A stretch of 64,000 bases of DNA, taken from contig NW_019091356.1 in the NCBI RefSeq assembly GCF_001949145.1, forward strand, positions 4,136,934 to 4,200,933, in the 5' to 3' direction. This stretch comes from Acanthaster planci. Taxonomy: Eukaryota. Position numbers and translations under genes: made by a program. A model generated the notes under the pieces. That model did no database searches. It was not told the origin of the DNA and saw only the letters and a program-made list of their open reading frames with translations. Shown piece after piece: positions 10,487 to 46,129 of this stretch; positions within the stretch are counted from its first letter, which is position 1; every line of letters begins with the position of its first letter.

Positions 10487-11206
10487 CTGCAGCTCTAAGC
10501 TAAACATAAAATGACCAGTGGTGACAGAATGCACGGTTGCCAGGTCAAAATGGCTACAAATATAGTACTCATGCCACCTCAAGGCCTACTATTCTGCCAT
10601 GTCTGCTGGGAAAGAGTTCCATATCTTAACATCACTTATTAATTATTCACCCTATGCACAAACCCCATCATGCCCATGGTTTGTGCATAAGACTGGGTTT
10701 TAAAAATTCTGCGGCGTAGTACATGCATTACATGGTATTACCATGGTAACCAAAGTATTTTTTTCACTGCTAAATTTGACTTTCATTAGAAAATCTCAGC
10801 ATTTTTCTGATGGCTAATATTATAGGCCAAGGCCCTAATGAGTAACGTCCACTGGTCATGCCCACGTCCCTCGTTTGTCCACTAAATAATAGTAATAATA
10901 CTCAAGCCACTCTGAAAACCGATCGACTAAGTTAGGGACCAGGCGACAATACCGTGTATACGATCATGGAGGTGGTACGATCATGACGATACGGTCACGG
11001 ACGTTACTGCAAGGGAAAACATGTAATCTAGGCCTATTTTGATCCCTACCTCAAAGTCTATCCGGGGACAACTCCTTGTCTGCAGGCAATGCAGAATAAA
11101 GCAAAACCTACGTTTATTCAAAAATTCTTTGAAGTTAAAGTAGATCTGTTTGACCACGGTTTGACCATGGTTTGACCATCATTTGATCATGACTATGCGT
11201 GAATTA

Positions 11207-15174: not shown

Positions 15175-18100
15175 TTAACTGCGGATGAAGGTCTTTCCAC
15201 TGTGGAATACAAGAGAGGAAAAACATAAGTGCAAAATGACGACAGTCGCTGACAATTTATCAGAGTTCTTTAATCTAAAATGCACTTGAGGGCAAAGAGG
15301 GGTATCAGAAAATACATCTTCTATTGATGCAAGGATAAGACATACGCAATGGATTCAGAATTTATTTTGTGACGATGAAGCTGGTAGAGAACTGTTCTTG
15401 CAAATGTTCAGGAATGAAAACTAAATCCCGTCTTTTCTTGGCTGTTTCAGCGTGGTCATGTGATTTCCCCCTGACCCAATGAGAATGCTCATTTGTGACA
15501 TCATAGTAGTACAATGTCTACCTTATTGTTTTCTTCTCCTTGTTGGAGTTCTCAGGCCGGGCCCTGTTGAGGACTTTCAGGAATTCTGCAGTGCGTGCTC
15601 GCATGCGAGTGTGGATGTAGGCCTGTTAGGAACAAGCACATTGGAAATTTGAGCATCGCAGCTTAACACACTGTCACATGGTGGACAATATTCGTCTAAC
15701 ATCTGCTATCATTTATATGCAAGCCATTGGGGGCGCTCTTTGCCAGATGTTACCTTGGAGCACTTGATGTGGTAGTGCAGGTAATCCCGGAAGAGATGGA
15801 TCAGATTGATGGTGTTGTCACGGGCCTTACGGTTAGTGTGACGGGGCTCCAAGACTGAGGAAAAGCAAAACAAATGGTTGATTTCATCACTTCAGTAGAC
15901 CGTTGGAAACAAACACAAACAGCTATGGAGCGCCCTCGTCCGTTATGCATGGAACTAATAACTCATCGCTCATTTCTGCACCCCAAGGAGGAAATCAGAG
16001 GTGAAAGTATTCCATCCATCTAAGAAAGCAAAGGTCCTCGGGGTTCTCTCTTCCTAAATCGTCTTTTGAAACTCTTTTCTTGAGAATTACGGCGGAACCA
16101 TTCACACAATAGTTTTTTGGGTGGTTTTTTTTTTATTCTGTCCAATTTCTTTCTCTATATGACCCTCAGGACTTACCAAACGTAATGTATCCGATATTGT
16201 CTCCTGTTGCCGCATCAGTGCCCTGCAGCTCCATAGGAGGTTCCTTGTGGCTGAAGAGGACCTGAGGGGCAGTCTGGCTCGCCCTTCGCCCCTCCTTGAA
16301 CTCCTGCAAGACAACAGACAAGGGTGGCTTATCAATGACCATGATCAGATTCGGCAATGGAAATCACTTTATCCGCCCGGAGTTTAAGTGCACCCTCACT
16401 GGCCAAAGAAAGACAGACTGGTACGAAGTTTTCCAACTGGGTTCTTGCAGGTGTTCAGTGTGCACGCAAAGACCACCCATTATCAGAATAAATCTGTTGT
16501 ACGTACTTAGCATGCCCACCATCCAATGCACATAACCTTGTGAGCCTATATGGTGAGTTTGTACCAAAGGTCTGTCAATTTCGTTTAAAACCTCACCCTC
16601 TTTTGTTTCCGGTCGGAGCGGATAATCTGAGGGAATTCCAAAAATCCAGGAGAAAATTCTTCTGTTTTTACCAGACACTGTAGGATCCATATTGGTCACA
16701 TAATATTCAAGAACATAGACAGCAAAGATAGGACCAGATCATTTCGTTGGTAGAGCACTGGAATGGTCTAATTTACAGCTCACAGATTCTAGTCTTATTT
16801 CACTCAACGTGTTTTGTTTACAAAAAGTTGACGAAAAGTGTGCTAGACATAATACATTTGATAGTGGAGACTTTCACTGACATTACAAGGCACCAGCCAA
16901 CCTGCATAAAGACTTTGCCAAAGATGACGTCATCGTCATCCTTGAACACAGTGCTAAAGACCACCGTGACACGATCCTTCTCAGCTGAAACGTACCTGGG
17001 GGATTAAAAAAAAAGAAGGAAAATCAAGTTGTAAGATGAGATGAATTACTTCAGGAAGCCATCTGTGCATCACTCAGCACAAATACAGATACTTTGAAAA
17101 GAACTGTCACGCAGTTGTTAATTTTACTCAATGGTTCTGCAGATTTCTGGAAAAAAATCAAAGTATGCTTTCGAAGTAGAAAGGATAAAGAAGACAAGGA
17201 AGGTGACCCACATAGTCTCGTCTTCACGGTAATGGATGACCGCCCGCTCTTGGCCTGTCTCCTCACGTTCCTGGAAGTCAAAGTACTTCTCAAAGACTGA
17301 GGCGAAGCAGTTGCGTTTGAGTAGAGCTCCCTTGGCAGCCTCTCCCGCAATGTCATTGGGAAGGTTCTCAAGATCATACAGGATGGAGACGTTGTAGCCT
17401 TCCTCAGTTTCAATGATGAGAGAGCCGTATTCTCGCTTCAGTAACTAGACAATTTGACACGTGGACAACTTGTTAGTTTGACTACAGCGAGTGAGATTTG
17501 GCAATATCACATTCATACAAAGATAAATGCATGCAAGGATTCAATGCTGACACGGTGGGAGGAGGGGAGGGGGTTGGAAGTAGCTTACCTCATCTGCTCC
17601 GTGTTTTTGGAGATCCTTGTAGAATTTGAGCGAAATGCTAACCCTCACTTTGGTCTTCTGTCCATCAGGGTTGGAAATGTGGTATGTTACACCATCGTAA
17701 TCTGTAAGAAAGATACAACAGCTTTTGGTAATCACTGTGCATTTCAACTTGAAAACGAACTTCCTTGTCAAATATGCAACCAAAAAAAAAAAAAATCAAA
17801 CACTGTTTGGCAACAGGGATGGATCTGATAATTAGCCAAGTCCAACTAGGCCTACCATGCCTATCATGACTAAGTTCTAACATATCTAATGGGTTTCTTC
17901 CTCCAGGAGACGCACCAACGTCCAATATTTGAAGACTCAGGCACAGTAAAATGAGAAGCAGTTTTGGAGGTGGGAGGAAAAACCCAAGGAATATTCTGGG
18001 TAAAACCCACCGAATCAGGCAGGGACTGAAAACCCAATCCACATGTGGACTGGGCCGTGAATCACGTAGGGATGTACACGGGGTGGAAGGTGAGGAAAGA

Positions 18101-18422
18101 ACCACTAGGTCTACGCCAACCTGATTCCCCGAGGTCGGATGTCTGACATGTTTATAAGCTGAACCAATGTGGCAAAGAGTTTTCTCATACCTGCAATAAC
18201 AATGTCTGTACTGTCGACTTTGTTCCTGTAAAAAAGGAAAGAAAATACAATTCCTTTTATTTCAATCTTCAATTTTATACAAATTATTTTAACGATGAAA
18301 ATTATTTTTATCACGAATTTGGTGCAGCTACCCCAGCGGAATACTTGCCCCGCCTTTGCCGCCTCAAATTTCGCTAATAATGTCTCCTCCAGTATTTTAT
18401 TCTTGATTTCCAGTAGAATCAT
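15175..18422 (-). CDS. ARPC2: Actin-related protein 2/3 complex subunit 2, 300 aa
   Basis: Exons 18422-18349, 18225-18191, 17701-17589, 17444-17212, 16995-16902, 16303-16177, 15854-15754, 15622-15522, 15199-15175; 903 nt. [109 protein letters not shown]. Confidence 0.98.
17890..18130 (-). mobile_element. Degenerate SINE (V/Meta-domain-like) in ARPC2 intron 2
   Basis: TTTGGAGGTGGGAGGAAAAACCCAAGGAATATTCTGGGTAAAACCCAC resembles the reverse complement of the GTGGGTTTCCTCCGGG...GGTTTCCTCCCAC central SINE motif; boundaries approximate. Confidence 0.5.
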
Positions 18423-22900: not shown

Positions 22901-25900
22901 GACTCATACTTTTACTCGGATTAATTTACGAGATTCTCCTTTGTGAATCCAGGATGCGAGGCAACAATTTCGCATCACTCTTACTGAGTCCTCCCATAAG
23001 CTGAACGACGCGGCCAAGCGATGCGGCAAGTCAGTCAAGAAAGCCAAGCCATACCACGAGGCTCGACTCAAGGCCAAGAGGGTAATGACGACTTGGTCAC
23101 ATTACACTCGCACTAACAATAAATTTAAAATTACAAAAAACTGCCGAGTTAATTTCAGATGGTGTAGAATCTCTATCGGGTGGATTATGCCTGCTGGTGC
23201 CTGAATGCATGTAGGCATTATGCTGGCAAAAACGCTCCAGGTCTATGAGGCGGATGTCAGAATCGTATTTGCTTTGGGGAAGGTTAATTTGCAAGTAGAC
23301 AGTTGAAGACCAGCTTTCCAAAAAGTTATAACAGTTGCAGCTGGAAAAAGTATGAGGTAACTTTTTGACCAGAAATTCTAAACACTTGTGAAGAGAAGTG
23401 CAAAGTTTGCCTATGAAGGCGTTGTGATTAGCATACGCACATCACACTGTTCGAATCTTTTATTAGCAAGTTTGTATACAGAGTCTTGTAACACTATCAT
23501 GGGAAGCCAGAATTCAAATACTTACCCATTATTTTCTGACACCAAGGCCCACGAGAAGGTGCAAGAGGCAGCGTACGCCTACCAGCGGGCCGTGGGGATG
23601 GTTAGGGCAGCGAAAGAAACCATCACTATTGCGGAGGAAACATCCATGCAAGGCAACAAGAAACGAGAATTTGATTCGGCGCTGCAGGAGATGTTGAACC
23701 ACGCTACGGTCAAGGTGAGCTAGCGCTGGGGTTTGAGAAGAGAGCGAAAATGACTGAATGATGCATAAGGAACGAGACGAACAGACCAGCTTGGTATTCC
23801 AACAGCGCATGCCCAAAATGAAACGCCTCGGAGGTCTGCCCTATCAGCGCAGCCCCGAACACAGATCCAAGGGCGTGCTTTGTTCCCAAGTGACATTGGG
23901 TATTTCTGACATCCTAAACTGGTTAATTGGTCTTGTTACTGCAGTTGAACATGGCTGAACAGGAGAAGGTGGGAGGTCAGAAGGAACACCAGCAATTATC
24001 CAAGGCCTACGTCAAATCTCTAGCTAAGGTTGAACAGCTCGCCAAGAAGTTACGGAAGAGCATCGCCAAATCAGCGTGAGTAGAGCTGGTGATGAAATCA
24101 GCATGTGAGACACGAGGTCTCCCGGGAACAAAAAAAGCAAAAGTACATTGTAAATTCAGAGACTGAATTGATTAATTATTGCCTTGATTGGATTGATTGA
24201 TGGAATTAATTACGAAATGATTTTTTGAGAAAATAGTTTCCAAAATTTCACGCCAATACCGAGAGAAAAATGGAACACGGTCACACAGAACAAAGAGAGG
24301 CTCATCCATTTATGTCTATCCTGATTGATGGTGGATGAAAATTAAATCAAGTAAACTGACGGACAGATACGCACAGCCTAACTGTACATTCTTCATTAAC
24401 GCGCTAGAGGTCTTTAATCTCTCCTGCAGAGCTTACTACGATCTCAGGGATGCCTTCTATTCCCGTCTAGAGAACCTCAAAGAGTCGGTAGAGAATCGCC
24501 AGAAGCTCTTGGCCAAGTGCAAGAAGCGGTATCGCGAGGCTCTCCGAAACCTGGAGAGGATCTCTGAAGACATCCACCACAGCAGGCAGCTGCAGATAGA
24601 GGCATCGCCGTCGCTGCAGGAGAGAAGCGCTGGGGTTGGAGCTGAGAGCGAGACGGAGCCTGGGAGAAACAGTGATGAAGAGGATGACCTATTCACCTCA
24701 ACAGAAGGTGAGGTTAGAATGGTGATAGTGAGGTGATGAGGATGTTGATTGTTGTCGTCATGAAGCTGACGCGGACGCGGGCGTTTAAATTCACTAGAGA
24801 TCTTGATGCTCTATGGGCAAAATTAAGAGTAGCATACATTCATCAACTTTCACAAATTAGCCTATCTAATTTAATTGCAAACAGGCGGCCAAGATGAACA
24901 TGGAGACCAAGAGCAAAATGTTCCAGTGCGTGGAGCCGAAGGAGGTGCTGGCACCTCTCGTCATTCCTCGTCGCATTCCTCCTCACCAGAAGACGGTGAT
25001 CCTCAGTCACCACTCCTTACTGAGCACGGTCTACCGACCCTTAGTCGCAAAATACAGCGAGAGGGATCGGACCCTGACTTCTATAAACCAAAATCAGCCA
25101 TAGCCAAACTGCCTGGAATTCTCCCAGAGGAGCAGGAGGTGATTGAAGCGACCTATCGAGGTTACAGGTCTTTCGATTCCGAATTGACCCAAGAGGAAGT
25201 CACTGCATTGCAGCAGACGTTGCCGTCCCAGGCCAGAGGCTCGGGGACCCCGGTCATCATGATCGACTCTCCCGAGGGGGTGACCGGCGAGCTTGAAGAC
25301 GAAGGCAGTGACGAGGATGAGCTGGAAATCTATGAGCCTGAGGAGATTGAGATGTCTGAGTTTGCCAACGAGGGCAGCATTGGGAGTGACGTCGGCGAAG
25401 GCGAAAACAGCGTGGAGATGAAAGCATTTGAGCAGGAAACTCAATTAAACGGTGAAGTAGACCAGACGTCTTTATCAGAGAGCAGTGAGGGCGACAGGGA
25501 TATGGAAGAAATCTTGTCAAAAGCCAATTTGCTTCAAGACGCAGCCGGCAATTCAGAACTGAGCAAGCCTGAAGTGTCTCTCAGCGACGACAGCCAACTA
25601 GAAGGAGTCGAGGATGGCCGAGAGGGCTCGGTGGAGGCTAGACCACGGAGCATGTCCTTTGGGTTTGAGAAGACATTGTTGGATGAAGACCATTTTGAGA
25701 AGCCAGACCTTCTGCCAAGTCCAATTCAGAAATTCCAGATGTCGGACCTAGACAGGCCGAGTTCGCCAGCGCTATTCCAGTATCGCGCCTTAGAACATAA
25801 ACAAGACGTACGTCAAGCAGACGACAACAGCGCCTTCACATACACGCCCGTTGTTTCCAATGACGACGCAGCAACAACCAATAACAATCAAGACGCCAAA

Positions 25901-25918
25901 AACGATGAAACTGACTGA
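19973..25918 (+). CDS. SH3BP5: SH3 domain-binding protein 5-like (Sab/parcas family Rab11 GEF), 616 aa
   Basis: Exons 19973-20020, 22056-22118, 22953-23081, 23547-23714, 23945-24075, 24430-24707, 24885-25918; 1851 nt in frame. LDPRIKGELDKLNSTSEEINRLEKELDDARQQFR, AKPYHEAR, RAAKETITIAE, FDSALQEMLNHATVK, YREALRNLERISEDIH match the SH3BP5 coiled-coil domain; long acidic C-terminal exon. Confidence 0.93.
20842..20949. repeat. 27-bp minisatellite x4
   Basis: TTYGGCAGCACTGCTGAAATGTATAGT repeated four times with no spacers, in SH3BP5 intron 1. Confidence 0.95.
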
Positions 25919-27768
25919 CCAATCAATGAAGAGATGCGACAGCGTGAAATCGTCCTATCCATAATTGTCGTGTTGATTTTGTCGCTTGTCTTCGTGAGTT
26001 TGCAAATCGTATTGACAGAGAGGCTCCGTTAAATCCATAGCAACTAATGACAACCAGTATTTCAAGAAGAAAAATAACTATATAAAAAGTTTGACAAAGC
26101 CGTAGAGAGGTGCAACACAATACAACATTCGCAAGCCAGAGGCCCTTGTACAACTTGAGGATTTATCTTTTTCGCTATACATGTAAGAACTACACAGTAT
26201 TCATTATGGTATACATGTACATAATTTACTTTTGAAATAACGGTACATGAAAATGTAATTCAGTCTGTCAGATGACACCAAATCAACATCATCCCTTCTA
26301 ACATGGCAAGACAAATATCGATGGTTTCAGTATTACTTTTGATTATAAAAAAATTACAAAAAATAAATCATTCGTGCACAGCAATGTATTAAAGAGCCCC
26401 CAAATAAGGGGACCTACCAACTCTTTGATCACTCTCTTACGGTTATTGGGGGGGGGAGAGAATATCTTCAACTGTTAGTCAGTACAAAGTTATCATTTAA
26501 AACGGGAACTGGGAACCATCTATAGTAGCTTTGGGTCCATTAACCACTGAGGTAGATGGAACATGATGTACCGTGTATTTTCAAGAACGCTACAATATAT
26601 ACGTCATCATTCCTGATAGCATTACAATCCAAGTCGACAAAATGACGACTAGGGATGCGAGTCATGGGTTGAGATAATAACAGGGCACACTTCCTAGATG
26701 CACCACCAACTCTAAAGTGGTCCGGCTGCAATCAATTTAAATATGTCAGAGGTTGGAAATTAATGAAAGCAAATTCAACAAGTCCAATCCCAGCAAAATG
26801 TATGGTGACTGCTCTTTGAAGTGATCAAAGAATTCAAACGTTTCCATTAATGTGCCCCAGGCTGCCATTAGAACAGATGGTCAACATTCTCACTAATGGA
26901 TGTGAAAGGTATCTTCATCATTTCTACAGAGCACAGAACACAAATGCCATTCCGATCCTACAAGCAACACCTGGTTTTCATTTTATAGTTTATCTCGAAA
27001 CGAATCAAGGTGGACATGGCTTGTCGAAATGAGCTTAAAAATATCTGATACAAAGTGCAAACTACAGTACCGTCTATTATTATGTAAAACATAGTCCTTA
27101 TTTATATGTCACATCAGAATAACTTCATTATTTCAGAAGTACATGTTTATTATTGTTAAAATACGTTTTGCTAATAATACCTATAATTAAAAGTAAACAT
27201 TTCATGAAGCATGAAAACTTTGCAGTTGACACGAAAGCTCTATCATAATCGTTTTGAATACCAAATGTGGCTACGCCGACCTCGGCATACCGCTGCTAAA
27301 AATCACAGATTAAAAATCTGATTTTAGTAACTACCGGGGTGTAATTTTAGAGGCATGGATCCAAGGGCTGAGGACTTGAGTTTGAGGGAGGTGCGGTGGG
27401 GGGGGGATATATACATTTAATGTAATCCCAAAATTTTTCTTATCTGTTCAGAGGTATCAACCATTTAGTGCAAACGAGGATGACACTCGCCACAAAAAAG
27501 CTCTTTAAAACGTGTTATGTGATAAGCATTACTAGAAATAAATCGCTGGTGTGCTACACCTCTGAGGTTTAAAGTCGAGAAACTTTTGTGAGTTGCCTGA
27601 CTACATGTTCATTGTACATATATGATACGTCTGTTATTCAGTGACAGCAAGAGGTGTGTTTTAAATCAGCCTCCTCTGATAAATGTTAACAAGAGTTTCG
27701 GCGTCATGAGTTTGTGAACAAGCTTGTACCTCCATACAAGAATGTAGGCATATTGCTCTAGCCGGTAA

Positions 27769-29321
27769 TCATTGATCAGGTACAATACTGAAATTGTCAC
27801 ATTCTTTGGGCCTCTCCAGCCAACGCCCTAGGCCCTCCGACAGAAATGTGGCTTTTAGGATCTTTTTACATTCTTGATAAGCCTCTGCTTTCTCCTTCAC
27901 CTCACGATAAGTGTTACCAACTTTGAAGTTCTGCTGAGGCTTTTCTTTGGAGACATTCCCTTTGCCCTGTTTGTCTTTTTTTGAGCTGCTACCTCTTTGG
28001 GGGGACTGCTTGATGGAACCTCCAGTGGTTTGACCCTTGCTAGAAGGAAACTTGTTCATAATGACCATGTAAGTAGAGAAGAGCTTCTCTTGGGAGACAC
28101 GAGATGAGCTGCCATCCTCTTTCAATCCTTTATCAGTTTTAATCACCTCGATATTATCCAAATCAATAATCCAGTTGATGCTGAAGTTTGGTGCTTTAGC
28201 AACCGGTGAGGCACCAAAGGGGCACTGGCTTGGTCTGCTGGTGCCCACCATCAGAGGTTTATTCAACTTGTAGCCTCTTGGTAAGTCTGGGAGGTCTGTG
28301 AGGCGCCCATACAGGGCTCTTGGGAGGTGATCAGGGTGGTACTGCATGCCCAAAACCACACTGGAGAGGTACACTGGTGCAATGAGGTGGCTCAAAAGTG
28401 CACCTTGAATTCCTAGGACATTCCAGCTGGCTACCTTGTCACTGCAAGTCATTGTAAAGAGGCGTTCAGGAGCTGCGGTGGCTTTGCCAGTTAGAGGAAT
28501 TGTGCTCTCTCCCTGCTTGATCTTGGCACGGAGGATGCCTCTAGCTCCTCTGCCAGGATGGACATCATTGTGTCCCATGTTGCGCTCCTCTTTGATGAAA
28601 CTTGAAGCATCTCCACAAGGGGGGCAGCTGATATACAGATGAAACCGGATTCCTTCCTTTAACTGCAGTATCCCACTGATGCCACCATCAAAGACGGATG
28701 ACCTGGGGTTCTTTTGGTACTCTAGGAGCTGTTCCATAAGGTACCTCTTCAGGCAGCGACGGGCAATGACCTCGGCATGACAATCATGAATGATTGTGCC
28801 TTTTGTGTGAGGCTCCTCGGCTAGAGGACACTTGGTTCCCGTTGCTAGGCAGACAACTTTCAAGCTTTCCACAGCTTCACCGTCTGACTGCACAATCCCG
28901 GCTAGCACCTTGTACTTCAGGTATCTATGCTGTCCATCATTGAGGGTAACCTCACGGAGCTTAGCCTCAATGAGGTTTTGGATGAGGTTGGCACAAATGA
29001 GAGCCTTCTGGGCAGACCAAGTAGAGTATAAAACACTCGGTGTTGGCCGAGTCCTGGCATATAGAAGCCCGTCATTATCAGGTGACTTGATGCCAAAAAC
29101 TGTAAGCAGAGCTTTCCGAGCGATTGCTTCTTTGGCTTCTTTTTTTTTCTTACCCTCTGCAGTGAAGATCTGCCCATCTAGCTGGATACTCATAACGTAA
29201 ACTGGCTCATGAGGTGGTCCACTCTTGTCGACCATGCTGAAGTCCAGTGGAGTGACAGTCATCTCATTTAGCATCTGGACTGGGTTCTTGTGAGAAGGTG
29301 GCTCAAATTCATCTTTTATAT
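27769..29321 (-). CDS. Single exon encoding one dsRBD plus an ADAR-type (ADAR2-like) adenosine deaminase domain; probable terminal exon of the upstream PACT/TRBP gene
   Basis: Acceptor ttctctttagttcctacag|AT at 29321, phase 1; (D)IKDEFEPPSHKNPVQMLNEM...GPPHEPVY...GKKKKEAKEAIARKALL is a dsRBD; deaminase motifs ATGTKC, HDCHAEVIARR (28771-28779), PPCGDA (28612-28620), TMTCSDKVASWNVLGIQGALLS (28435-28446), APNFSINW, YREVK..YQECK..GRWLERP. No stop for >500 codons; AATAAA on - strand at 27146-27151. Confidence 0.93.
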
Positions 29322-30366
29322 CTGTAGGAACTAAAGAGAATTCAACAAGGGACTCATAAAGAACGACAGATGGTTTTTCTTAGCCGTCTTAAAATTAATG
29401 ACTGCACAGTTAAACTGCGGGTCAGAAACAACTGCCAGTCAAAATGCTATTGAAATAGAAGTTTTGTGTTTGACCACGACACAAATACACAACCATACTA
29501 TTACACAAGCTAGGAAATATCAAGGTCTTTTTAATTCACTTGTTTGAATAATCTATAACATACTACTCAGCACGATCTAACAAGTTAGCTTCTTAAAAAG
29601 ACATATTTTTGACAGCATGCCTTAGAGGTTCAATAGATTTGCTCACTTGTCGGAATTCAATTTGCAAATATCTTTGTTGCTGCATCTCCCGCCCCTTAGA
29701 ATAAAAAATTGTTTTTGGAAATTTTTTTTAGTCTTCTTCAGACTGTAAAACAATGCATGCATGCATTGGTATTGAATTATCTACTGAACAGATGAAACAA
29801 GTTCATTTTAAAAAGTAAGGTTTTTAAAAAAGTAGTATCTACATCTATAAACAAAGGGGTTTTGACAACTGATATTCAAATTCTACAAACAACATACAGA
29901 TGACATATGAAATTGAAAAAAGAAGCCACTTTCTCTAACCCAAACAAGAAGAAATCCACATGAAAACAAAGGAGACAAAGACCAATCCATTGTCATTCAT
30001 TCATTCATTTCAGCAGCTGACAAAGCTTAAAATCTAGTCAAACCTCAAGGATGGAAGACCAAAGACAAACTGACTTGTCCAGCCAACCAGAACCTTGCAA
30101 ATCAGAGTTTACAGTTTTTATTTGATGAGGGTGTACTTTGTATACTTGCCAAAGATACACGATTGAAATAGAAAGCATGGAAAGGATCTCTCCAAACTAT
30201 ATGTACCTCAAAGAAGTTCTAAGGATGTATCTAGATAAAATTATGACATAAATAAAGAAACGCTGCAGCTATAATACAGGAAATGATCTGCATTATATCC
30301 ATGAATACGTTTAAAGAAGATGCTAATAGTTCGCATATTTGTAATTATAAATTCAAAGCTTAGTTA

Positions 30367-33300
30367 TCATGATTTACCGATGAGTGCATCGGGCGGTTTT
30401 TGAGCCATCATCTTAATGTAGTAGAGGGCATTACGAGCCGCGGTGGCATGAGCGCTGTCCAGCCTCTGACCAGTGCCATGACACACAGCCAGGGGCGATG
30501 TCTGTAATTCCACCAGGCACTGGTACTGATTGTTGGGGCCAGGTTCAGGGAGGTCAATGTATCTGGTTGCAAAGTTTTGTTCGACGGCTATCAATTGCAG
30601 TATCTGGCAGGATTGGGCATCTGCAAAGGCAGAAAGAGTTACTTAGAGAGCCAGTTTTGCTATAACTATTTTGACCAGCTACAAATGTTGACTGCTAGGC
30701 TTGCAGGTGGCACTTTTTCTGTCATTTTTGGTAACGATAAACATGTTTTTTAATTAATTCACATTTGGTTTAGGGTTTAATTGAACTATGGATAAAGATT
30801 AAACTTCTGAAGAAGTTAGCTGTTTACCCTTTTATTCCAAGAAAAGAGGGTAAGATTAGGGATACCTAAGTTAAGAGGAAGAAGTTGCAGTCAGTGTGTT
30901 TGTTTCTGTTTTCTAATGCAGATGATCAGCTTATAAAGCACAACCCACCAGAGTGACATCAGACTTGCAGAAATTTTTTTTGTGCAAAACATTTTGGCAA
31001 AGCTGTGCTAACAACGGTAAATTTACTTAATCCTGGGATAACACTTTCAAACAGTGAGTGTGAATCCTGCATGATGATGGAAATAGTTGTGCCCTTGAGC
31101 AAGGTACTTTACAATAATCATTTCTGACCACAGGGGAAAAAAGGTCCACTGTAGGTTGTTTTGGCTGTTCTGTTGGACTAGCTACAAATTTTAGTTTGAA
31201 GAAAAGTAATCAAGGCTGAAAGGCTGGGGCGGCAGAAAATAGCATGATCCATGGTCAAAGCGTTCAGCAAATTGATGGAAAATGAACCTGTTGGTATGAT
31301 GTTACATTTATCTTCACATGAGGGACAGCAGTGAGTGCATACATATAGATTTTTTTTTGCCCCATAAACCACTGGCCATGCTAAAATGAAGAATGAATGC
31401 TTAATACCACACAATGACGACACAGCAGACAAACACGACACAGGTAGCACTCGCTGGGTTTCTGCAATGCTTTTGAGCGTACTCTATACGTCACATCTAC
31501 ACATGTACACCAAAATGAAAGTGCAGACACAAATGACAAATGAATGGAATACTGGCAGGTGCATGGAGGTATCAGAGTGGTTCTGAAACTTAAAACGTCC
31601 CGGTTCTTTTGGAGGACCTCCATTGGAACTTTGCCTGTCCCTGCCAGAAACAAGTAGTTTTGTTGCATGTTTCCAGTTGGAATGAAGTGTCCTGGATTAG
31701 TATGTTATTCCATGTGAGGATAGTAGCTGTTCCATATCAAACCGAGCGGTACTCCAAGCTGGAAGGGAAAGGTCTCTGCCCAATTTCACAGAGCTGCTTC
31801 ACAGTATAGCAGAAAAGTTGTTCTTACTGTAGCAGAAATATTAGCTGGCCTCAAGCTCTATTTTATAGATGTGATTGGCAGACCTGCCAACCTCTTGAAT
31901 CACAAAACTGTATTCTGAAAATTCAAAAGTAGTATTTTTCATTAAAAAATTGTATTTTGCAAAAATGAGAAAAGGCCTATTCCTCCACGTGAGCGTTTTG
32001 ACCACTTGTCTGGATTGGGTCTAGTCCGGACAAGATTGCGGCAACACTTCTTAACGCAAAAAATAATCACATGAGAAATGCATTATCGAGGTTGAAGAGG
32101 GATATGGCCCTATTCCCCCTTTATTGATCACGTTTTCAAATTGTGAAATCTTGAAATGCACATCGCTAATCCAGGCTTTTGGAATTTCCTGGTGCTGAAT
32201 TGTCGCCTGCTCGCTGGCCGGCCGTAAAATGCCTCCCTCCTTTTTTCATTTCTGCAGATTTTTAACTTGAGGATCAGTCTTGTCAAAGATTGCATCCAAA
32301 TGGGACCCTCTTTAAACAATCCATACACAGGTGTTGTAATGGACACGTTGATGAGTCTATGTCCTAAAATTGTTTGAAATCTCATAAAAAACGATGCACA
32401 CGGAATCTGTAAAAGCTGTGCAATAATGTACAACACACTTTCCTTTTCCCCGCACCACTTGTCAGGCACGAGGCCTTCTATTGCGGTGAAAGCGGAAAAA
32501 TTAGTAACTTTATTTCAAGCCGCATATTTACGGAGGACGTGAAACGTGGGCTACATAAAATACTGGAGACTGTTTGTCACTACTTCCATTGACGCACAAG
32601 CAGCTTTAAAGAGTTCCACTAATGCAACATGAATATTGACATTTCATGGGCAGCCAATAACGTCGGATGATTACTGGATGCTGTTTACACATGAGGCTCG
32701 TACACGTGCATGCTTACCCTGTACTCACGTACATGTACATTGTACATGTGCAAACGTTCAAGGCTGTATATTTCTAGTATAATGTGCACTCGCAATCGTT
32801 GAACTACATTTTTTTTTCAGGCGTGTCAATATCGTCAAAACCCATATTTTATGGGGGAGAAAACGTACGATCGTATGTTCCAGAATTTCCCAGCTAAATC
32901 GTACCAGTTGGCAGGTCTGGCTTGTTGTTAACCAGTTGCACATGCATAGAGTTTTCTGTTGTTAAATGTACATCTTCTCTAGCTCAGTTAAGCAAATTTT
33001 CCTCTGAAGTTAGCATGCCTTTGGCTGTGCTTGCTGCTTACGTTCTCCATGTTCTATGCAAAGCCTCTGTGAGTGGAAAGCCAAGTGCTTAGCAATGCCA
33101 TGAAACTGGGCAATGGAGTTAGTGCAGGCACCTTAGGGATAAAGCCTGACAACTGCCAGAGCCTTCAATAGGAGCAGGGAAGCATTCTAAGTGAAACGTT
33201 GCAGGTGTTCAGAGTCATGAGATATTCCCTCAGAAGAAGTTTTCAGAAGAATAACCATCACATATCCTCATGATTATGGTTACGTAAGAAGAGAGAGGGA

Positions 33301-35685
33301 AGTTTCAAAAATAGGGTACCAACACAGAAGAGGTACAAGAGAAATGGGACCCACCTGGGAAGTTGAGAGGGTTGTTACGGAGTCTGTCGATGTTCTGTCC
33401 GACAGCGAACTGCAGCGAGCAGCCAGTTGCTTTGGCAGCTGGTGCATCTGCAGCCTGTTTCTTCTGTCGAATAAGGCAATACAATTTAAATTGTCATCAC
33501 TCACTATTTTTAAGGAAACTTTATTGTAATTTTTTTTGTGATCAGAGTAATTTTGGAGTAAGGCTGCACTAAGGAAAGAAAAGGAATTTAAGATTGCAAT
33601 TCAGAAGTTGAGTGAGAGGAAGAGAACTGAAGAGTGTGTTTCTGAGCAAGTAAGCACAGCTGGAGTGAGACTCAAATCAGGGATCAGGAATTAGGACATG
33701 AGTGGTTGTTAACCTTAAGTCCTCAATAACTTTGCTCACAATCTTCCTAAATCCTTCAAATTCTTCCAATGTGCATGGAATCGGTGACACAGTTTTTGTA
33801 CTTTCAAGGGCATCAAGCTCTATGCCCAGTAACAGAGGCTGGGCTCTACCTCCCTCAATATGGCAAAATCTGTTGAAACCTCTTGGTGGATTTTGGTGGA
33901 TCTGGTTGGGGCAGGTTAAAGGATTGCTGATGAACAACCTCAAACAGCTCACATGATCTTTGTCACGTGACCTGCCAAGAAGAAAAGACATGTCCAAGTG
34001 CCCGAAACTGGAGGTAAACATCAAGTCTGAACAATGCATCCTCATACACCAAGAATTGTAGCACTTGTACCTTGGACTTGGTGGTTCCGGGTTCGATTCC
34101 TGGGTCTGTATCTGGTGGCAAGGCTTTGATTTTTTCCAGCATAGCCTTGGCGGCTGTGCGCTTGGCAAGACGTTTACTTTTGTCTGTTCCTGTGGACACA
34201 GGGGCCAAGGAAAAAATTAGATTACAAACTATGAACGTGGAAGAGACTTTGAAACATCAGCAGGAAACTTGGCAAACGTTATCCAGTACCTTCATATCTA
34301 TAAACAGGATGTACAGTATAAGTCAACAACAAAATAGTCAACCTTGCTCTTTGAACTTTCCCACGGTGACTCCAATTACAAAGCTTCTGTCATGTGGGGG
34401 TCCTGTTTCTTCAATCTCATCATATTCCGGCCGCCTCCAACCGAGGAATGTGACTAGCTCTTGAAGCTGTCCCACAGGGTTGGGAGGATCAACCCTTGAT
34501 GCATGAACAGAAGGGAGGAAATAAAAATTTACAATTAGGAGAAATCAAGGTTTTTACTCACAAATGGTGTTCATCTCCAATAATTGAGAATACAGTGAAT
34601 ATTTAGGAGAAGTTACAAGACTGCAAAACAGATGTCCAGAGTTCTGTATTGACATAAGTAATTTTGCTTTAAACACCAAACAATACTATTTATCTTGTTT
34701 ATTATTAAATTCTTGATCATCAGAAAAAAATTAGGATATATTTTAACATGTAGATTGAATTGATGACTTTCATGCAGAGGGCATCCTGTCTGATGGACTC
34801 AGGAAGGTTCTTCAGCAAAAGTAAGGTAGGGACTAAGGAACACCATCCCACCAGTAACTGGGAAGCGAGGCTTAGAAGGGGTCTGGCGGGGGAGGGGGGC
34901 AAAAGACCTACGTTTCCGCTTTGACACTGTCTAGTTTGGGGATCTCCACTTCCCACTGTTGCAAGACGGCCTCAGCGGCGGCTTGCTTGGCGCTCTTCTT
35001 GCTCACTCCTTCTCCTGTGAAGGAAAAAGATGAGCGACAAACTCACATCAACGCTATCTCCACCGTCCATGAGGTAAACTTCAAAACATTGGAAAATTAA
35101 GATAAATATTTACTTTGTGATGTTTTGATAGCTACTTATATGAACTTTAAAATGAGAGACATTAAATACCTTTCCATCAAGTGTATGAACTGGATACTGG
35201 ACAAAATGGCAGAAAGATTTCTTGATACGAGGGGTACTTATTTTCCCCTAAATGTATCTATTAGCCATCTGAGAGCAATAACATGATCTAAAATGTTGAA
35301 TTTACCAAGGAAGATATTGAGGTACATGTACATGTAAGCCCTGTGCTTGCCGGCAGAAAATACTTGTGGAATTTTTCAGACCAGTCTCATAGGGTTGGTG
35401 CACAGGATGTCAAGTGGCGTTTGAACTTGGAATTCTTTCCAAACTGGCTTTCTCTCATTGCGTACCAGGAGTCAATGGACAGATGCAATGTTTAAACAAC
35501 TGGCAAGGTCCAACGTAGCTTGAGTTTGACCTACCTGTGCCTACTGTTTGTCCAGCTGTACAGTTGATGGTGAATTTAGGTTGGTGGGATAGGCCCTCCT
35601 GACTGATGGTGTTATAGATGGGTGTCATGCCCTGCCGAGCACAGTGCTCCTGCAGTATGCTGACTGCCGTCTTGCAGTTTGCCAT
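30367..35685 (-). CDS. TARBP2: PACT/TRBP family (PRKRA/TARBP2/loquacious-like) three-dsRBD protein, 295 aa in its short form
   Basis: Exons 35685-35535, 35014-34912, 34494-34343, 34189-34071, 33463-33355, 30620-30367; phases 1,2,1,0,1 all consistent. dsRBD1 KTAVSILQE..GLSHQPKF..SKKSAKQAAA; dsRBD2 NPVGQLQEL..GWRRPEY..GPPHDRSF..SKRLAKRTAA; type-B dsRBD3 YQCLVELQTSPLAVCHGTG..AHATAARNALYYIKMM. Likely co-orthologue of PRKRA and TARBP2. Non-coding exon donor at 36260, acceptor at 35721. Confidence 0.92.
31879..32919. mobile_element. Non-autonomous DNA transposon in PACT/TRBP intron 5
   Basis: Perfect 13-bp terminal inverted repeat CAGACCTGCCAAC...GTTGGCAGGTCTG; no clear TSD (GATTGG vs GCTTGT, 4/6). 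Confidence 0.7.
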
Positions 35686-35796
35686 CTTGAATGGGAGTCT
35701 GGTCAGAGGGGTGCGGAATGACTATGCATGAGAGGGCAGGATATGTTGAGAAATATTAATTACAATTCAAGAACTGTTTCACCATTGTCGGCATTT

Positions 35797-36115
35797 GGGG
35801 GGCCTAAGGCCTAAGTGGTTAGGGTTTGTAGTTTCCAATCATAGGGTCGGGGGTTCGCATCCAGCTGGTAGCAGCATGTTATGACCTTGGGCAAGTCACT
35901 TTACCTCTCTCCATTCAGGAGTAAATGGGTACCTGTGAGGGCAGACACGATAATGTTTAGCCGTTTGCGACGAAATGGCAGCATCAGGCTAATATACTCC
36001 CCAGAGAGCTGAGATGGTTTCAGGAATGTTCAGATGATGTGAGCCCAATGTGCAGGCATAATGATAATAAGCACGTGCAGACATTCCGTAATATGCGCTA
36101 TATACACGTAGTACT
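35797..36115 (+). mobile_element. tRNA-derived SINE
   Basis: A box-like GGCCTAAGTGGTTAGG, B box GGTTCGCATCC, CORE-like CCTTGGGCAAGTCACTTTACCTC, Nin-like CAGGAGTAAATGGGTACCTG, L2-like tail GCGCTATATA; lies in the 5'UTR intron of the dsRBD gene. Confidence 0.75.
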
Positions 36116-36329
36116 GTACTAGTGACTACCCACGTGATCAGGTCAGATGACAGATCCATGCATCCATCATGTCTACGCACGATGTGCATGTAATGATTGA
36201 CTTTTATCTTTAAAAAACGACAAAATTTTAACAAAAATAGTATTTTTGGCTTAACTTACCGTCCAGCTTCGTGACAATGTTGCTGGCAAGCAAGGAAATT
36301 CTTTCCTGGGCCTTAAATTCTGAATAAAA

Positions 36330-36560: not shown

Positions 36561-37209
36561 CTGTGAAATTTGTCTATCATGTCTCTAATTCTTTAGTTTG
36601 CAGCCAGTGACTGAGATAGCAGAATACCACAGTGTTATGTGAGTCGGCTTGAAATAATTGTCGGAAATTGTCATGGACGAAAGATCTGAGTTATTCCATA
36701 CATGGACATGATGGAGGTAGAAAAGACTCGATCTGGTTCTGTTTTCCTTCCTCCTTGACCAGACCCCTTCGTCATGGGTCTAGCACTGCTAGTAGTACTA
36801 GTATTACTAGGCTGGCCGCTGGGCTTCAATCCATTCATCCAGTACCAGTCCTCAAAAATATTGCACACATGGCTGATCGATTTTGCTTGCTCGGAGCGCG
36901 CGCAATCACGGACGTGACAGCTCTAGGCTAGGGCAGTTTTTAAATTTAAGTTCAGTGACAATGAAAGTACAAAGCGACTGTCCACTCAGAAAGCACAGGA
37001 ATATCTACCTGCTCTCCAGAATGGGGCACCATGCAAGCACACTTACTGTACAGTGTAGGCCTTTATGTAGTCGTCTAAGACTTTCAACATACATGACGGC
37101 GGCATTGACAGAAACTGACTCAATCATGTAGATTATAGTTTGCCCAATTGTAATGTTATCATCTTGCAAATTTGTACATTTACTTGCAGATTCCTTCAGC
37201 ACTGTGAAG

Positions 37210-40200
37210 ATGGCAGTCAGTATTTGGTTTTCCGCACCTAGCAAGGAACTTAAGCGACTTGTTCGTACATGCATTTACTTTACAACACAGAGTCGCAACC
37301 CCCAACATTTTAAACCATCCTACCTGCTTGATGAACTAGCTTCAAGAAGTAAATATATTGCAGTCAATTCTAAAATAGCTAATTCCACCCTAAATACCGA
37401 GCAGTGTGCTACAACGTCCAATCAAAGGGAATTGTCAAAGTGTAGAGAGCGACACCAAGGTAAAGCGAACATGAAATGGCCCAGTATGCTCTTCCACCAA
37501 AGAGGTTTGGACACTAGCATTGACTGTAGACTCCTCAGTGTTGGCCACCAACTTACATGTAGATGGCTGCCAGGCAGTGGAATTTCAACGCAACCAATGA
37601 GGCTCTTCCACGGGAGCAGCACCGTCTGGGCTGGGCATAACAAATGGTCCAAGGTGAAGCACATCAAGGGCCCTAAAGATGATCAAAGGAGTATTGTCTT
37701 CAACAAACTCATTCTGCAGATGAGGATTGCTATAAGAGGTATGTTTATTTATTATGCAAAGACACTTGTTTCATATGCTACTCATTGGCCTGTTTACTGT
37801 TAATATATGAACAGACTGTGTGAAGGAAGCAAAGGAAAAACCCACACGAAATCAAAACCCCAAAACTTAAAAACAAAAGACCAACATATTCTTGAGAGAA
37901 TTGAAGGAAAGGCAGCTTCCAGGACCTCCCAACAACGAGCCTACCCCAAACCCAGCCTCTTTACCCAGCCTTCCAAAGTGAAGGTCATCCAACTTCAAAC
38001 CAACCCACGCCAACCCAACCACCAATCCATCCCTACTTACAATGCTAACTGTTTGGAAATCCATCTAACTTACATTGATTTACCTTGTTTGTTTTCTTCA
38101 AGTCCTCAAAAATGTCAAATTATTTAATTTATATTTTTTTTGTCTCTTTAGAAAATGGACCAAATCCTGAATTGAATTCTGCTCTGGCAGGTTTAATATC
38201 CCAGGCCAAGTCAAAAGCTATGCCAAAGTCGACAATAGAAGGGGTTCTCAAAGCTCCTGTAAGTACAGTGCAAACGGCATGCATAAGAACATTAGAGCAT
38301 AACAACGTATTGAAGATTTGGAGTATTTCCCTAATTATGGTGTGTAGGAGAGCCGCCTAAATGGACAGGGACATTTTGCTTAAACATGCCTCTACAGACC
38401 TCACTGGCACTAGAAGTGGGGGGTTACTTGGGGGTAATAGCCCCCTACTTTTGGCAGGTCCTTTAGTGATCTGTGCCTGATGGTCTCACAAATGCCCCCC
38501 CCCACTTTGAAAACTGTTCTGCTGCTTCTGTCTACAGTATATGATGAAATTTAAGAAGCATCTGTCAACGCCTTTGTTTGCATTTTACTAGTGGCTAAAT
38601 AAACCGTCACTCAGTCAAAATGACTGAGAACCAGTCTCCATCAGTACACTTTGCCTTTCATTTTAGCTGGTAACCTACTTTAGTTGGACTAATATTTTCT
38701 CTGCTTAGCAGAATTCTGTGCCATGCAGCTCTATGAAATTGTGCAGTGTCCAAACTATTTGGTTAGGGCTTTACACATGGTCCTGTGTGAAGTGGCTGCA
38801 GCCAGCACCATGGAATCATGCGCAATGTCAAGCCATAGCCAAGTAATTCGGACACTGCCTTGGCTGCGGCCGATTCTGATCCTGTGTCCACTGTGTATGA
38901 AGGCTAAGAGTGCAGACACACAGCTGCTGTTGGAGGCACGAGGGCCAGGCCAGTCATGTCTTCTCATTGATGTCTTGACAGACAATGCCAGAAGGACGAG
39001 GAATGAGATACAACGAATCTTACAAAAGAATGGGTGAGGCCGATTTATCAGTCATAGACTTAGGGGTGAGATTTCTCAGCTTTTTTAGCTGATTTCAGCT
39101 TTTTTTGTTTTGGATTTTAGCTTTATTTCTTCACTGGCTATGTACAAAAGCAAAGGAGATTTTAAGAGTTCAGCTTCTTGATGCCTTTTCAGCTGTTTCA
39201 GCTATTTTTATCATTGGTCAATCTCATCCCTGTAGACTCTACACAGTAGCGTATCCAGTAGTGTGTTCCCCCCCCCACTCACCTTTCAGATAATTTTATT
39301 AAAAGGAATTGCTAGTTTGGGCATTTTAGAAAATAGTACTGCCCCCATTTTTTGGGGTATGGGTGAAGTTTTTTTGCTGAACCCCCCCTCACTAAAAATC
39401 TGAATTGCTACTGGTTTATTTTGCAGGAGTTGCATACTCTAAAATTGGACCCATCTTGCACCATTAGTTCTGTTAGTTATATCATGTAACGTGAAGTACC
39501 AAAAAATTGCTGATGGGTACATACCTGTAGAGATACATACTTCAAAAATCTGAATGTTTGTTGCTGCTATTGAAGCATTTTTCTGATCATTGTAGCCTGC
39601 CTCGCTGGGAGAATAAATCCAAAACAAGGACAATAACTTTGAAATAGATTCCAGTGTATAAATATTTGTGCATTGCTTTTATGTTTTCAAATCGTTCCAG
39701 AGGAGACTTTGGCACCAGTCTCTATGCCTTCACAAGGAAGGGCGTGGTCAAAGTGTTACCACAAATGGAAGGTCAGGAGAAACCGTTGACCCTTGACCTT
39801 GCTGAGGAGGTTGCCATCGAGGTCGGTGCCGAGGATGTGCAGGAGACAAGCAACGAGGACGACACTGCCCTGTTCATGGTGAGTGTGGTGAATATTTGTT
39901 CATGGATTTACCTGGCAGCCCCCCTGGATTTGAACCCAGGGGGGCTTGGGTTTTTGAGGCAAAATACAGGAATAGTAAAAGCAGCCGATGAATGGCAAGG
40001 GCTGCATAAAAATGCAGCAACCATGTGTTACCAGAGAGCGTGTGAGCGTAGAGTCAGATCCCCTCGCCAACTGTTTTTCTGCTCAAATGTTAAAGCCTAG
40101 AAGTGCTTATTTTCTGACTCTAACAAAATTGGGATGCTGCATCAATCTTGAATTTATTAAGTGTTGTCCAAGAACATGCACAATCCTACTAAATTTGGGG

Positions 40201-43118: not shown

Positions 43119-46100
43119 CTAGATCGGTACGAACGATGGTGGCTGCTTTTCGTCCCGCTTAAGATCGTACATCTGGGGTTGTTGCTTCTTGTCACCGGAC
43201 CTCTCATCGTCGCCACCGTCAGAATCGGAGGAGTAGTCGTCATCTCCTTGGTAACCCTGCCCTTGCTCCTTCCTACCTCGGCTTCCTCTGGCAGCCACGT
43301 CCATGCTCTCCTCAAGGGCTAGAGAGGGAAAACTAAAACTGTCCTCAGGACTCAGCAGTGGCATGCTGTCTACACTCTCCCTCTTCAGGGCGTCCCAGAT
43401 GGACCTCTCGTACCTACTCTGGAGGCTTCTGCCGAGAAGCAGCTCTTCATCGCGAAGAAATTTGGCAACCTTATTCGGTTGGAGACTTCCACCCAAGGCT
43501 CCATGTTTGTACCAGTAGTCTGGTATGTATCCACCGAGCCTTCCGAACTCCATCTCGAATTCACCGAAGTAGGGTTCGAAGGGAAAGCCGTAGTACATCA
43601 ACTGGTCTGTGACGTCTTTCAATTTTCCCAACTCATGGAGAAGCTCCTCCATCCCGAGTCGTTCGCTCCGGACAATTTCGTTGAGGTAGGCGATCCTTTC
43701 CTTCAGCGATTTCCGTCTTTTCTGTCTGAAAATTGAAGAGGTAAAAGACAATGTTCCGGTGTTTTAAAGTGAGATTTGCACTACCTCAAAAATTCCCAGG
43801 ACCGAGAAATTTGCTTAACAACAAACTTTAGATATACACAAGCATGTTATGCGAGGAACTCGAGGCGAGGCAAATATCCTCTCAAATATCAATCAATCAG
43901 TTATTATTATTATTCGATGGGGTAATGCTTTACAAATTCCTTTCTATAATTTTAGAAACACATTGATACTGCTAATACAAGTCGTAAGTGCTAGATTTGT
44001 GATGAATATGCAGCTTTTTTCGTTGAAACGTTCAAGCAGAATATTCCACCGATTCAGGCTTGTGTGCTGTTACTTGTGCGCCAAGGACGAGGATATTAAA
44101 TCAGGATTTTGTCCGACTAACTTTTTGTTTGTACTAAGTATGCTTACCTGTAGAAAGATCCATTCAGCTTCATTTCCAGTCTGAGGTCCTCTGACAGGAG
44201 CCGGTGCTGATAATCCAGACTCTTTGTTTCTTCTTTCCACCCATGCGCTTTTTCTGTCAGCAGGGCTACCCTGGCTTGCAGCCTCCGTTTCAGGCGGTGG
44301 CTACCCCGGTACTTGGTCACCTCTCTGGCCACATTGTCTTTCATGACAGTCAGGAGCTTGAGAGCAGCCTGCTGGGTCTCCTTGCTCTCGATGAGCTCCT
44401 CCAACTTCTGGCAAAGCTTCTCCAGTTTTTTCTCCTGCCAGGAAAGCGGTCCGGACCCCCGCGACTCTTGTTCCTGGCGTTCCAAGTCATGCTCCAGGGT
44501 TAGAGTCTCCATGCTATCCTCTGTGCCCTGCATTGATACCAGGGCTTCTTTCGTATTGCGGGGAATGGGTTGCTCTTGATACTTTTCTTGGGCCGTTTTG
44601 GCGTTGGTTGATCTGGCTTGGGCAGGTGCTTTGGGCCTTACTTTGGCGTCGCCATCGTTGTGAATCGAAGGCATCTTGCCGTTTTCATTTTTAATCGGAG
44701 ACGTGCTTTCCTGGTTCTTATTGACATCTTGATCCCTCATTTTCTTGCCCCTTGGTTGAGGCTGTAGGTCTGGTAAACTAGCCCTTTTTGCAGCATCTTC
44801 TTCATCGGTTTGCCCTCCGCTGTTGTCCTCTGCTGCCTCGTCTTCACCATCTGCCTGGTATGTATGTTGTTGAGAGTCATTCCTTCTCTGTACCTCACCT
44901 CCTCGATTTCTAACTCTGGCCTTGTCTGTCGTGTTCTTGGTCATTTTGGATTCACTTGCCTGACTTTTTTGCGCCACCCCCACTTGATTTTCCCCTCCCG
45001 CAGTTTCAAAATCGTCTGATTTAGACTCGGCCTTAGCTTTTCTCAATTTTTGGTTGGTACTCCTTTTCAGAGGCGATCGATCGTTGGAATTATCGGGCTG
45101 CCTTTTTGCAAACGATTTGCCATTTTCGTGTTGGCCTTCTACGCCGGTTTCTCGTGTAGCCTCCGGCTTGGCATTTTTCTTGCTACCTCCTGATCTGTCT
45201 ACGGACTTAGACATGTTGCTTCTCCCATGATTTCCAGGTTCTAGTGCAGGTGCTGGTTTATTGACGTATGAGGTTCGCTCCTTGTCCATGTCTGCGAGAC
45301 TTTTTACCTTCTTTCGAACGTCAACGGGCTGTTTCGGCACTGGGTTGTTCTTGGCGACCTGTCGTGTGCTCTTTTGCGAAGCCTTGGACATTACCGATGG
45401 GGCATCCATCTCCGATGAAGATGACATCCCACTGTCGGATGCAGGGTTCCCGGCCAACTTTTGTCGAATGTGCTCGGCTTTGCACCACCAATCTCTAGCC
45501 AGATCCACCGACATTTCGCTCTTATTCAGCACGTCTGGAACCAACCTTAGAATGTTCTCGAATCGGTTGCAGTCCTTGAACTGACAAATGCGGTATGCCG
45601 ACGTTTCGTCGAATAGAGTCGGGTCGATTTCAGACTCTCCAAGAAGCTCCTCCCAGTTGTTGACATTCTCTTCCAGACTGTCCACATCAAGCGAGAGCTG
45701 TCGGCACAATTCCCCAACCTCCTTGATCAAGTCTGGTGACAGTCCTTGGCCTTGCCCCTTGACCAGACCCCCTGTCTTGACCTGCAGGTCTCGGAGACGT
45801 ATGAACGAGCTGTCATAAAAGAACTCATACAGCACAGTGTAGATTCTGTCTTTGAAGGTCCAAGCCAGTCGGCGTAGGTCCTCTATGTACTCGAAGAACA
45901 TCTTGAAGAACATCTTGCTTTTGTGCCTTTGAGGTGATGGTGGGATACTCTTTATGACGTCACGGAGGGCCCCGAGGGAATTCACGGTGAGGTTTTGTGG
46001 GATGACTGCCTGGAGGTGCCGGTAGAGTCGTTCGACAGAAAAGCTGTCAACTCGCCGCACTCCGGCTTTGAAGCTTAAGAGTTGCCTGTGCATGGCGTAG

Positions 46101-46129
46101 TTCTGTTTTGGCCTGCTTGCCCCTATCAT
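43119..46129 (-). CDS. Uncharacterised protein (~862 aa): helical N-terminal region, disordered middle, coiled coil, aromatic C-terminal region
   Basis: Exons 46129-44148 (donor AG|GTAAGC, phase 2) and 43725-43119 (acceptor ttttcag, phase 2) join in frame (..FYRQKRRKSLKERIAYL..). An in-frame acceptor at 46144 means upstream exons may exist. No family recognised. Confidence 0.85.

Follow-up and report, generated by a model that had tools for sequence, protein, structure and literature searches.

An asterozoan TRBP-type gene with an ADAR2-like deaminase as a likely alternative last exon

The DNA analysed here, referred to throughout as the window, is a 64,000-nucleotide (nt) stretch of the Acanthaster planci genome (RefSeq assembly GCF_001949145.1, contig NW_019091356.1, positions 4,136,934 to 4,200,933), with positions counted from its first letter. 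Its minus strand carries a gene that appears to join, by splicing, a cofactor of the TRBP/PACT kind to an ADAR2-like RNA-editing deaminase. Seven exons join with GT/AG ends into one reading frame of 2430 nt and 809 amino acids (aa) with a single stop (Table 1), and the top database match of the last exon is an A. planci RefSeq protein, XP_022085279.1, which is also 809 aa long, 100% identical and equal to the exon join. Pfam recognises a domain of the type that binds double-stranded RNA (dsRBD; dsrm, E 1e-8) and a full-length A_deamin domain (E 1.9e-82) in the last exon, and gives a Staufen_C match for exon 6.

Table 1. Features of the TRBP-ADAR2 locus, in window coordinates
Feature	Position	Strand	Evidence
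Coding exon 1: start codon ATG plus most of dsRBD1 (type A)	35535..35685	-	exon 1-2 junction in 4/4 RNA runs
Exon 2: end of dsRBD1 and linker	34912..35014	-	exon join, RNA junctions
Exon 3: most of dsRBD2 (type A)	34343..34494	-	exon join, RNA junctions
Exon 4: end of dsRBD2 and linker	34071..34189	-	exon join, RNA junctions
Exon 5: linker and helix preceding dsRBD3; phase-1 donor able to skip exon 6	33355..33463	-	exon join, RNA
Exon 6: type-B dsRBD3 (PACT/TRBP/Loqs kind); ends at internal phase-1 donor TCG/GTAAAT	30378..30620	-	
Donor read-through, which closes the 295-aa plain TRBP (final codons, stop)	30367..30377	-	reading frame
3' untranslated region of short-form TRBP, AATAAA at 30122-30117; inside the fusion intron	29630..30366	-	RNA depth
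Pair of phase-1 acceptors separated by 9 nt (exons starting at 29330 and 29321)	29321..29332	-	RefSeq 812/809-aa isoforms; same site in L001
Last exon, intronless: dsRBD4 (ADAR2 dsRBD2-like), deaminase and stop	27769..29330	-	Pfam; RNA in 4/4 runs
dsRBD4 (aa 302-369), type A, RNA-contact positions N, E, H, K	29092..29295	-	
Zinc-site span: H474, E476, C528, C585 (ADAR2 H394, E396, C451, C516)	28444..28779	-	
Shortened segment in place of the ADAR dimerisation helix; lacks W502/D503/G504, 7 residues shorter	28465..28497	-	
Basic disordered insert (aa 719-755) of sea-star proteins; possible nuclear signal	27934..28044	-	
Candidate poly(A) signal for the fused form (AATAAA)	27146..27151	-	sequence motif

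Several proteins can be read from this arrangement. The donors at 33355 and 30378 and the acceptor at 29321 are all phase 1. Use of the donor at 30378 removes a fusion intron of 1056 nt and gives the 809-aa protein; reading through it gives a 295-aa protein ending in LIGKS; and skipping exon 6 stays in frame and gives 728 aa. A second acceptor at 29330, 9 nt upstream of 29321, yields the RefSeq isoform of 812 aa and matches the junction in other species. An earlier note, made from the letters of the window, had placed both donors, the acceptor at 29321 and the three products exactly so, and had also put the last exon's first in-frame ATG at 29274, within the dsRBD, where we find it.

The fused architecture recurs in databases, in computed models throughout, all of them named 'double-stranded RNA-specific editase 1-like'. 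Besides Acanthaster, models exist for Patiria (814 and 733 aa), Asterias rubens and Asterias amurensis (798 and 719 aa) and Amphiura (840 aa), so that the conserved linkage the earlier note had proposed to look for is modelled in four further species, within Asterozoa. Fusions containing dsRBD3 are modelled in all five species; the shorter models of Patiria and the two Asterias species (3/5) skip it, and no exon-6-skipped form occurs among the three Acanthaster cluster members (3/3). Among 266 collected deaminase proteins, a TRBP-type dsRBD3 is found in six, every one asterozoan, and Acanthaster has in addition a separate, ordinary ADAR2 (P0085), 38% identical. P0152 seemed near by identity but was set aside as a repetitive ordinary ADAR2 model.

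When the TRBP part was searched against proteins of 444-1416 aa, the 11 matches were six fused asterozoan and five Staufen-like proteins. Among shorter proteins there were 17 matches, which included stand-alone TRBP of 304-318 aa from two urchin genera (Diadema and Lytechinus), two crinoids (Anneissia and Antedon) and one sea cucumber (Apostichopus); those close to the sea-star gene were exon-sized fragments only, and no stand-alone full-length sea-star TRBP surfaced among the 17, so that the RefSeq name likely hides the sea-star TRBP gene. Because these searches score word-sharing candidates only (17 of 1120 and 11 of 2944), the taxonomic range is a lower bound, and absence outside Asterozoa is not proved. 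A metagenome locus, L001, supplies a brittle-star-type version in one unbroken exon, preceded by a phase-1 acceptor that is rich in pyrimidines and falls on the same D-P-T site. In a scan of 80 metagenome loci it was the only one to score clearly better against the fusion, and the TRBP dsRBD3 was absent from all 80.

Expression was assessed from four raw-read RNA runs belonging to three studies (of nine runs listed), 18-24% of each being read, across 26500-35860, a span that leaves out the putative 5' untranslated region (UTR) exon; the threshold for listing a junction was three reads in a run, and the libraries look unstranded. All five TRBP junctions, that between exons 5 and 6 included, are present in all four runs, with 1-19 reads each. 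The UTR of the short form is covered to a depth of 2.4-9.8 at 29943-30255. The earlier note had ended this form at the AATAAA at 30117, and coverage drops near that signal in one run of the four (X14); in three runs it continues past it to about 29630. Directly upstream of the deaminase exon, at 29317-29629, depth is 0.02-0.45, and the exon itself is transcribed in all four runs (mean depth 3.6, 1.7, 0.6 and 3.4, as averages of five bins). The near-zero depth speaks against a first exon belonging to the deaminase alone and, with the lack of an in-frame ATG ahead of the dsRBD and the phase-1 acceptor kept in L001, makes a stand-alone deaminase gene unlikely, as the earlier note had argued. The 3' end of the fused form, expected near 27146, is masked and not fixed by RNA because the UTR of a neighbouring gene likely overlaps it. 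Short intronic repeats at 35369-35416, 33828-33859, 33000-33050 and 31790-32320 draw many RNA reads that match them in part and stem from other places in the genome.

The identical RefSeq model, the models in five species, the acceptor in L001 and the expression of the exons together support a real fusion gene that is conserved in sea stars and brittle stars, and we consider its structure as a TRBP-ADAR2 fusion highly probable.

What kind of deaminase has been joined to the TRBP gene? We numbered residues by the 701-aa colugo ADAR2 (P0021), with roles taken from the available text of PMC11120146, and compared seven fusion sequences, four from sea stars and three of brittle-star type. The zinc and catalytic residues H394, E396, C451 and C516 are kept in all seven, as are K376, R474, R477, R481, K483, G487, E488, T490, R510, K519 and D695; G489 is S in the four sea-star sequences and G in the three brittle-star-type ones. 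Twelve of the 15 positions that coordinate inositol hexakisphosphate (IP6) are kept in the Acanthaster fusion, the altered ones being N391H, R522S and K629Q. The dimer segment, by contrast, spans 16 residues in 13/13 fusion records versus 21-32 in 206 of the 209 other measurable ADARs (it could not be measured in 44 of the 266 deaminase proteins), and the W502/D503 core of the dimerisation helix (501-509) is absent from all 13 and present in 204 of those 209, with W502, D503 and G504 lost through a common 7-residue deletion. In ADAR2, according to the available text of PMC7641318, the docking site for this helix consists of R455, H460, R590 and G593 on a second monomer, and that monomer's dsRBD then binds the RNA; in the fusions, helix and receiving face are both lost and the catalytic residues are invariant. 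An AlphaFold model (71 rows; mean local confidence, pLDDT, 75; predicted template-modelling score, pTM, 0.55) contains four dsRBDs together with an ADAR fold that matches ADAR2 with a template-modelling score of up to 0.84 by target length. The fusion would probably be catalytically active as an adenosine-to-inosine editor. Close to the C terminus of the deaminase, sea-star sequences carry the basic low-complexity insert, which is nearly absent from brittle-star-type sequences. Three unrelated ADAR-like proteins (P0194, P0276 and P0285) also have a short segment, of 12-14 aa, instead of the dimer helix.

The TRBP part is recognisable as well. Its first two dsRBDs are type-A domains with RNA-binding motifs, and exon 6 finds its best PDB matches in dsRBD3 of PACT, Loqs and TRBP (E 6e-17 to 9e-14); overall this part is 46-53% identical to stand-alone echinoderm TRBP. 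Using the Dicer-contact residues given in the accessible portion of PMC5716075, we find that dsRBD3 retains the equivalents of PACT L273, V283, H285 and Y305, with T282 changed to A and Q304 to Y, and that across genera L, V and Y are kept in 4/4 and H in 3/4. The PACT work in that source describes one surface serving homodimers and Dicer alike, and dsRBD3 has been presented as a tether that brings dsRBD1-2 to the Dicer substrate (PMC7384945, available text). A two-copy dsRBD3 complex prediction (aa 1-75 of exon 6, alignment not used) scored 0.11, with the mark at 0.32, and is not evidence either way. We put forward Dicer-linked targeting of the fusion as a tentative proposal.

Phylogenetic analysis used a quick tree of 47 rows and a careful tree of 22 rows without ADAR1, both hand-picked from the 266 proteins and containing no rows labelled ADAD or ADAR3. 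In the quick tree the fusion deaminases form one clade, within which sea stars and brittle stars stand apart, and this clade, relative to the split from ADAR1 (100), falls with ADAR2, under a long-branch warning. In the careful tree, sisterhood with sea-star ADAR2 is neither rejected nor demonstrated (p value of the approximately unbiased test, 0.257). The deaminase is a rapidly evolving copy from the ADAR2 side. The split between sea stars and brittle stars dates back roughly 480 million years. The captured piece is intronless and begins just before dsRBD2 of ADAR2, which suggests a 5'-truncated retrocopy, by analogy with TRIM5-CypA.

In our preferred reading the locus produces both plain TRBP and, through an alternative last exon, a TRBP-ADAR chimera predicted to act on adenosines of double-stranded RNA, with the editor positioned by the TRBP domains and not by the dimer helix of ADAR; we put the probability of this reading at about 0.48. 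A 5'-truncated ADAR2 copy, probably a retrocopy, would have inserted behind TRBP in the ancestor of the asterozoans and been captured through the donor within the last TRBP exon. Human ADAR2 needs a second monomer to contribute a dsRBD; dsRBD1-2 of TRBP would supply that function in cis, and the dimer helix could then have been given up. The third domain would tether the chimera to Dicer or to another TRBP molecule, namely the short form, one partner at a time because both would use the same surface, and this might bias editing toward cytoplasmic duplexes of the Dicer pathway, with the dsRBD3-skipped form acting as an untethered editor. Editing might thereby be brought to Dicer substrates or to sensors of double-stranded RNA. 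The fullest version, in which a Dicer cofactor has carried an active editor throughout sea-star and brittle-star history, and a splice switch in the last TRBP exon makes a Dicer-tethered ADAR2 that lacks the dimer helix and edits microRNA and small interfering RNA precursors reaching Dicer, is rather unlikely as a whole.

Several observations weigh against the preferred reading. The junctions that the earlier note proposed to look for, 30378 to 29321 and 33355 to 29321, are not listed in any of the four runs at the threshold of three reads, and neither is 30378 to 29330, so that the RNA data demonstrate expression at both ends of the gene but do not directly demonstrate the splice. The expectation is about 1.2-2.4 spanning reads in each run, a depth too low to decide: multiplying the per-run values, the chance of a blank in all four runs is about 0.25 with one acceptor and 0.55 with two. 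No TRBP exon lies within the 1065 bases upstream of the L001 exon. The junction of the Amphiura model resembles read-in intron sequence, which weakens that record; gene calls P0006 and P0009 begin with similar read-in leaders. The stem of the fusions is long, at 1.07-1.9 changes per site, with no fixed position within ADAR2. The AlphaFold model has pLDDT below 50 over aa 529-584, the loops for RNA binding and base flipping. Some other invertebrate ADAR loci are likewise one unbroken match (L007), and thus the intronless state is not proof of retroposition. The remaining points concern the editor and its tether, and bear on two of the three alternatives below.

The best-placed alternative, though an unlikely one, is that the fusion is made but is a weak or dead editor, which shields double-stranded RNA or competes with TRBP and ADAR2 in the manner of ADR-1, ADAR3 and ADAD. 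Beyond the deleted helix, N391, R455, H460, S495, R522, R590 and G593 are altered or absent in all seven fusions (the mapping of 590-593 being less sure beside an insertion), the changed residues double as RNA or IP6 contacts, and the K629Q of Acanthaster, the G489S of sea stars and the long stem branch of the deaminases would fit this alternative. For human ADAR2, the available text of PMC7641318 reports that G593A strongly reduces activity and that D503A lowers the rate at one site about 1000-fold. The same text, however, has other sites little affected by D503A, so that some editing sites tolerate helix mutants, and ADAR1-like proteins also lack R455. Against this alternative, too, the four catalytic residues and E488, T490, K376, R481, K483, R510 and K519 are invariant (7/7) at a core identity of 57-82%, whereas in the accessible table S2-1 of Zhang 2023 H-E-C-C occurs in none of the six ADAD rows that are scored at all four positions, two further ADAD rows being fragments.

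A less likely possibility still is an active editor that borrowed the TRBP promoter and dsRBD1-2 as generic arms, with Dicer irrelevant and the dsRBD3-skipped form doing the work, perhaps in the nucleus. The skipped isoforms modelled in three species agree with this, the basic insert could replace the lost N-terminal nuclear signal of ADAR2, and dsRBD3 is the most diverged TRBP domain, at 49-71% identity across fusions against 67-92% for dsRBD1-2. Yet fusions containing dsRBD3 are modelled in every species and no skipped form is found among the Acanthaster cluster members, and the interface residues of dsRBD3 are kept, though the short form alone would select for that. Finally, it is improbable that annotation software, or rare read-through, merged two neighbours, the deaminase being driven by a separate promoter and starting from a first exon of its own: the unlisted junction, the computed nature of every fused record and the imperfect-looking Amphiura junction would allow it, but no in-frame ATG precedes the dsRBD, the phase-1 acceptor is conserved in L001, RNA depth is near zero across the 300 bases upstream, and models with acceptors 9 nt apart and exon skips recur in five genomes, such isoform models normally being built from transcript evidence.

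A TRBP-ADAR chimera positioned by its TRBP domains can be set beside several known systems. TRBP (TARBP2), PACT (PRKRA) and Loquacious-PB share with it a pair of type-A dsRBDs and a type-B dsRBD3 that carries the surface residues for homodimers and Dicer; the known members stop just after dsRBD3, which is true of the 295-aa form and untrue of the fused form, whose alternative donor adds a fourth dsRBD and a deaminase. ADAR2 (ADARB1) has a like dsRBD2 and a deaminase that is 37-39% identical, with the same zinc site, flipping glutamate, most IP6 residues and predicted fold, but the fusion lacks the ADAR2 N terminus and dsRBD1, has the dimer helix deleted and R455, H460, R522, R590 and G593 replaced, and encodes its ADAR2 portion in a single exon. 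Taken alone, the last exon has the domain count of ADAD proteins, one dsRBD and a deaminase (PMC4323055, available text), but the catalytic set is lost in ADADs and kept in the fusion, which is closest to ADAR2 in all searches. Functional links between ADARs and the Dicer and PKR cofactors are familiar: Ota and colleagues reportedly described in 2013, to go by the title, a human ADAR1-Dicer complex. PACT and ADAR1 are linked against PKR (PMC11971382, available text), again as separate proteins, and with ADAR1 rather than ADAR2. In TRIM5-CypA (TRIMCyp), a copy behind a host gene is alternatively spliced on as a new C terminus; the genes are others, retroposition is only presumed for the asterozoan exon, and macaque TRIMCyp is 5-10 million years old (PMC2279257, accessible part), compared with a fusion that spans sea stars and brittle stars.

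The chimeric gene is real and ancient and apparently undescribed, while already present in automatic annotation under a misleading name. The earlier note knew of no such fusion, and the full-text literature we searched, subscription papers and bioRxiv supplements being outside its scope, contained no account of either a TRBP/PACT-ADAR fusion or the ADARs of sea stars; novelty does not extend to RefSeq, which contains it under an uninformative label. A search on RNA editing, Acanthaster planci and ADAR2 returned nothing, the available parts of a metazoan survey (PMC9989829, including seven supplements) sample no asterozoan, and Acanthaster is absent from the available text and supplements of Zhang 2023; supplements of echinoderm genome papers may list the gene under an ADAR name. 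The duplexes that RNA editing acts on are also contested by RNA interference, and the mammalian links among ADAR1, PACT and Dicer run only between separate proteins. A natural covalent fusion kept in two echinoderm classes would make that link directly testable, isoform by isoform. An ADAR that has naturally dispensed with the helix considered necessary for dimer-dependent editing would also test whether dsRBDs in cis replace the second monomer, and bears on compact editors for site-directed RNA editing.

Elsewhere in the window, long open frames at 44144-46180 (minus strand, 678 aa) and 43119-43763 (minus strand, 214 aa) have no Pfam match. The SH3BP5 gene (23382-25918, plus strand) converges on the TRBP-ADAR2 locus; RNA depth of up to about 40 in run X14 at 26500-27440 is probably its 3' UTR, which may overlap that of the fusion in antisense. 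On the other side, a TACO1/YebC gene (37132-40100, plus strand) lies head to head with the TRBP-ADAR2 gene, possibly sharing its promoter, and a putative 5' UTR exon of the fusion gene, with a G/GTAAGT donor at 36260/36259, is about 1 kb from it. Exons of Ferroportin (5100-10600) and of ARPC2 (p34-Arc; 17100-18300), both on the minus strand, are usable synteny markers.

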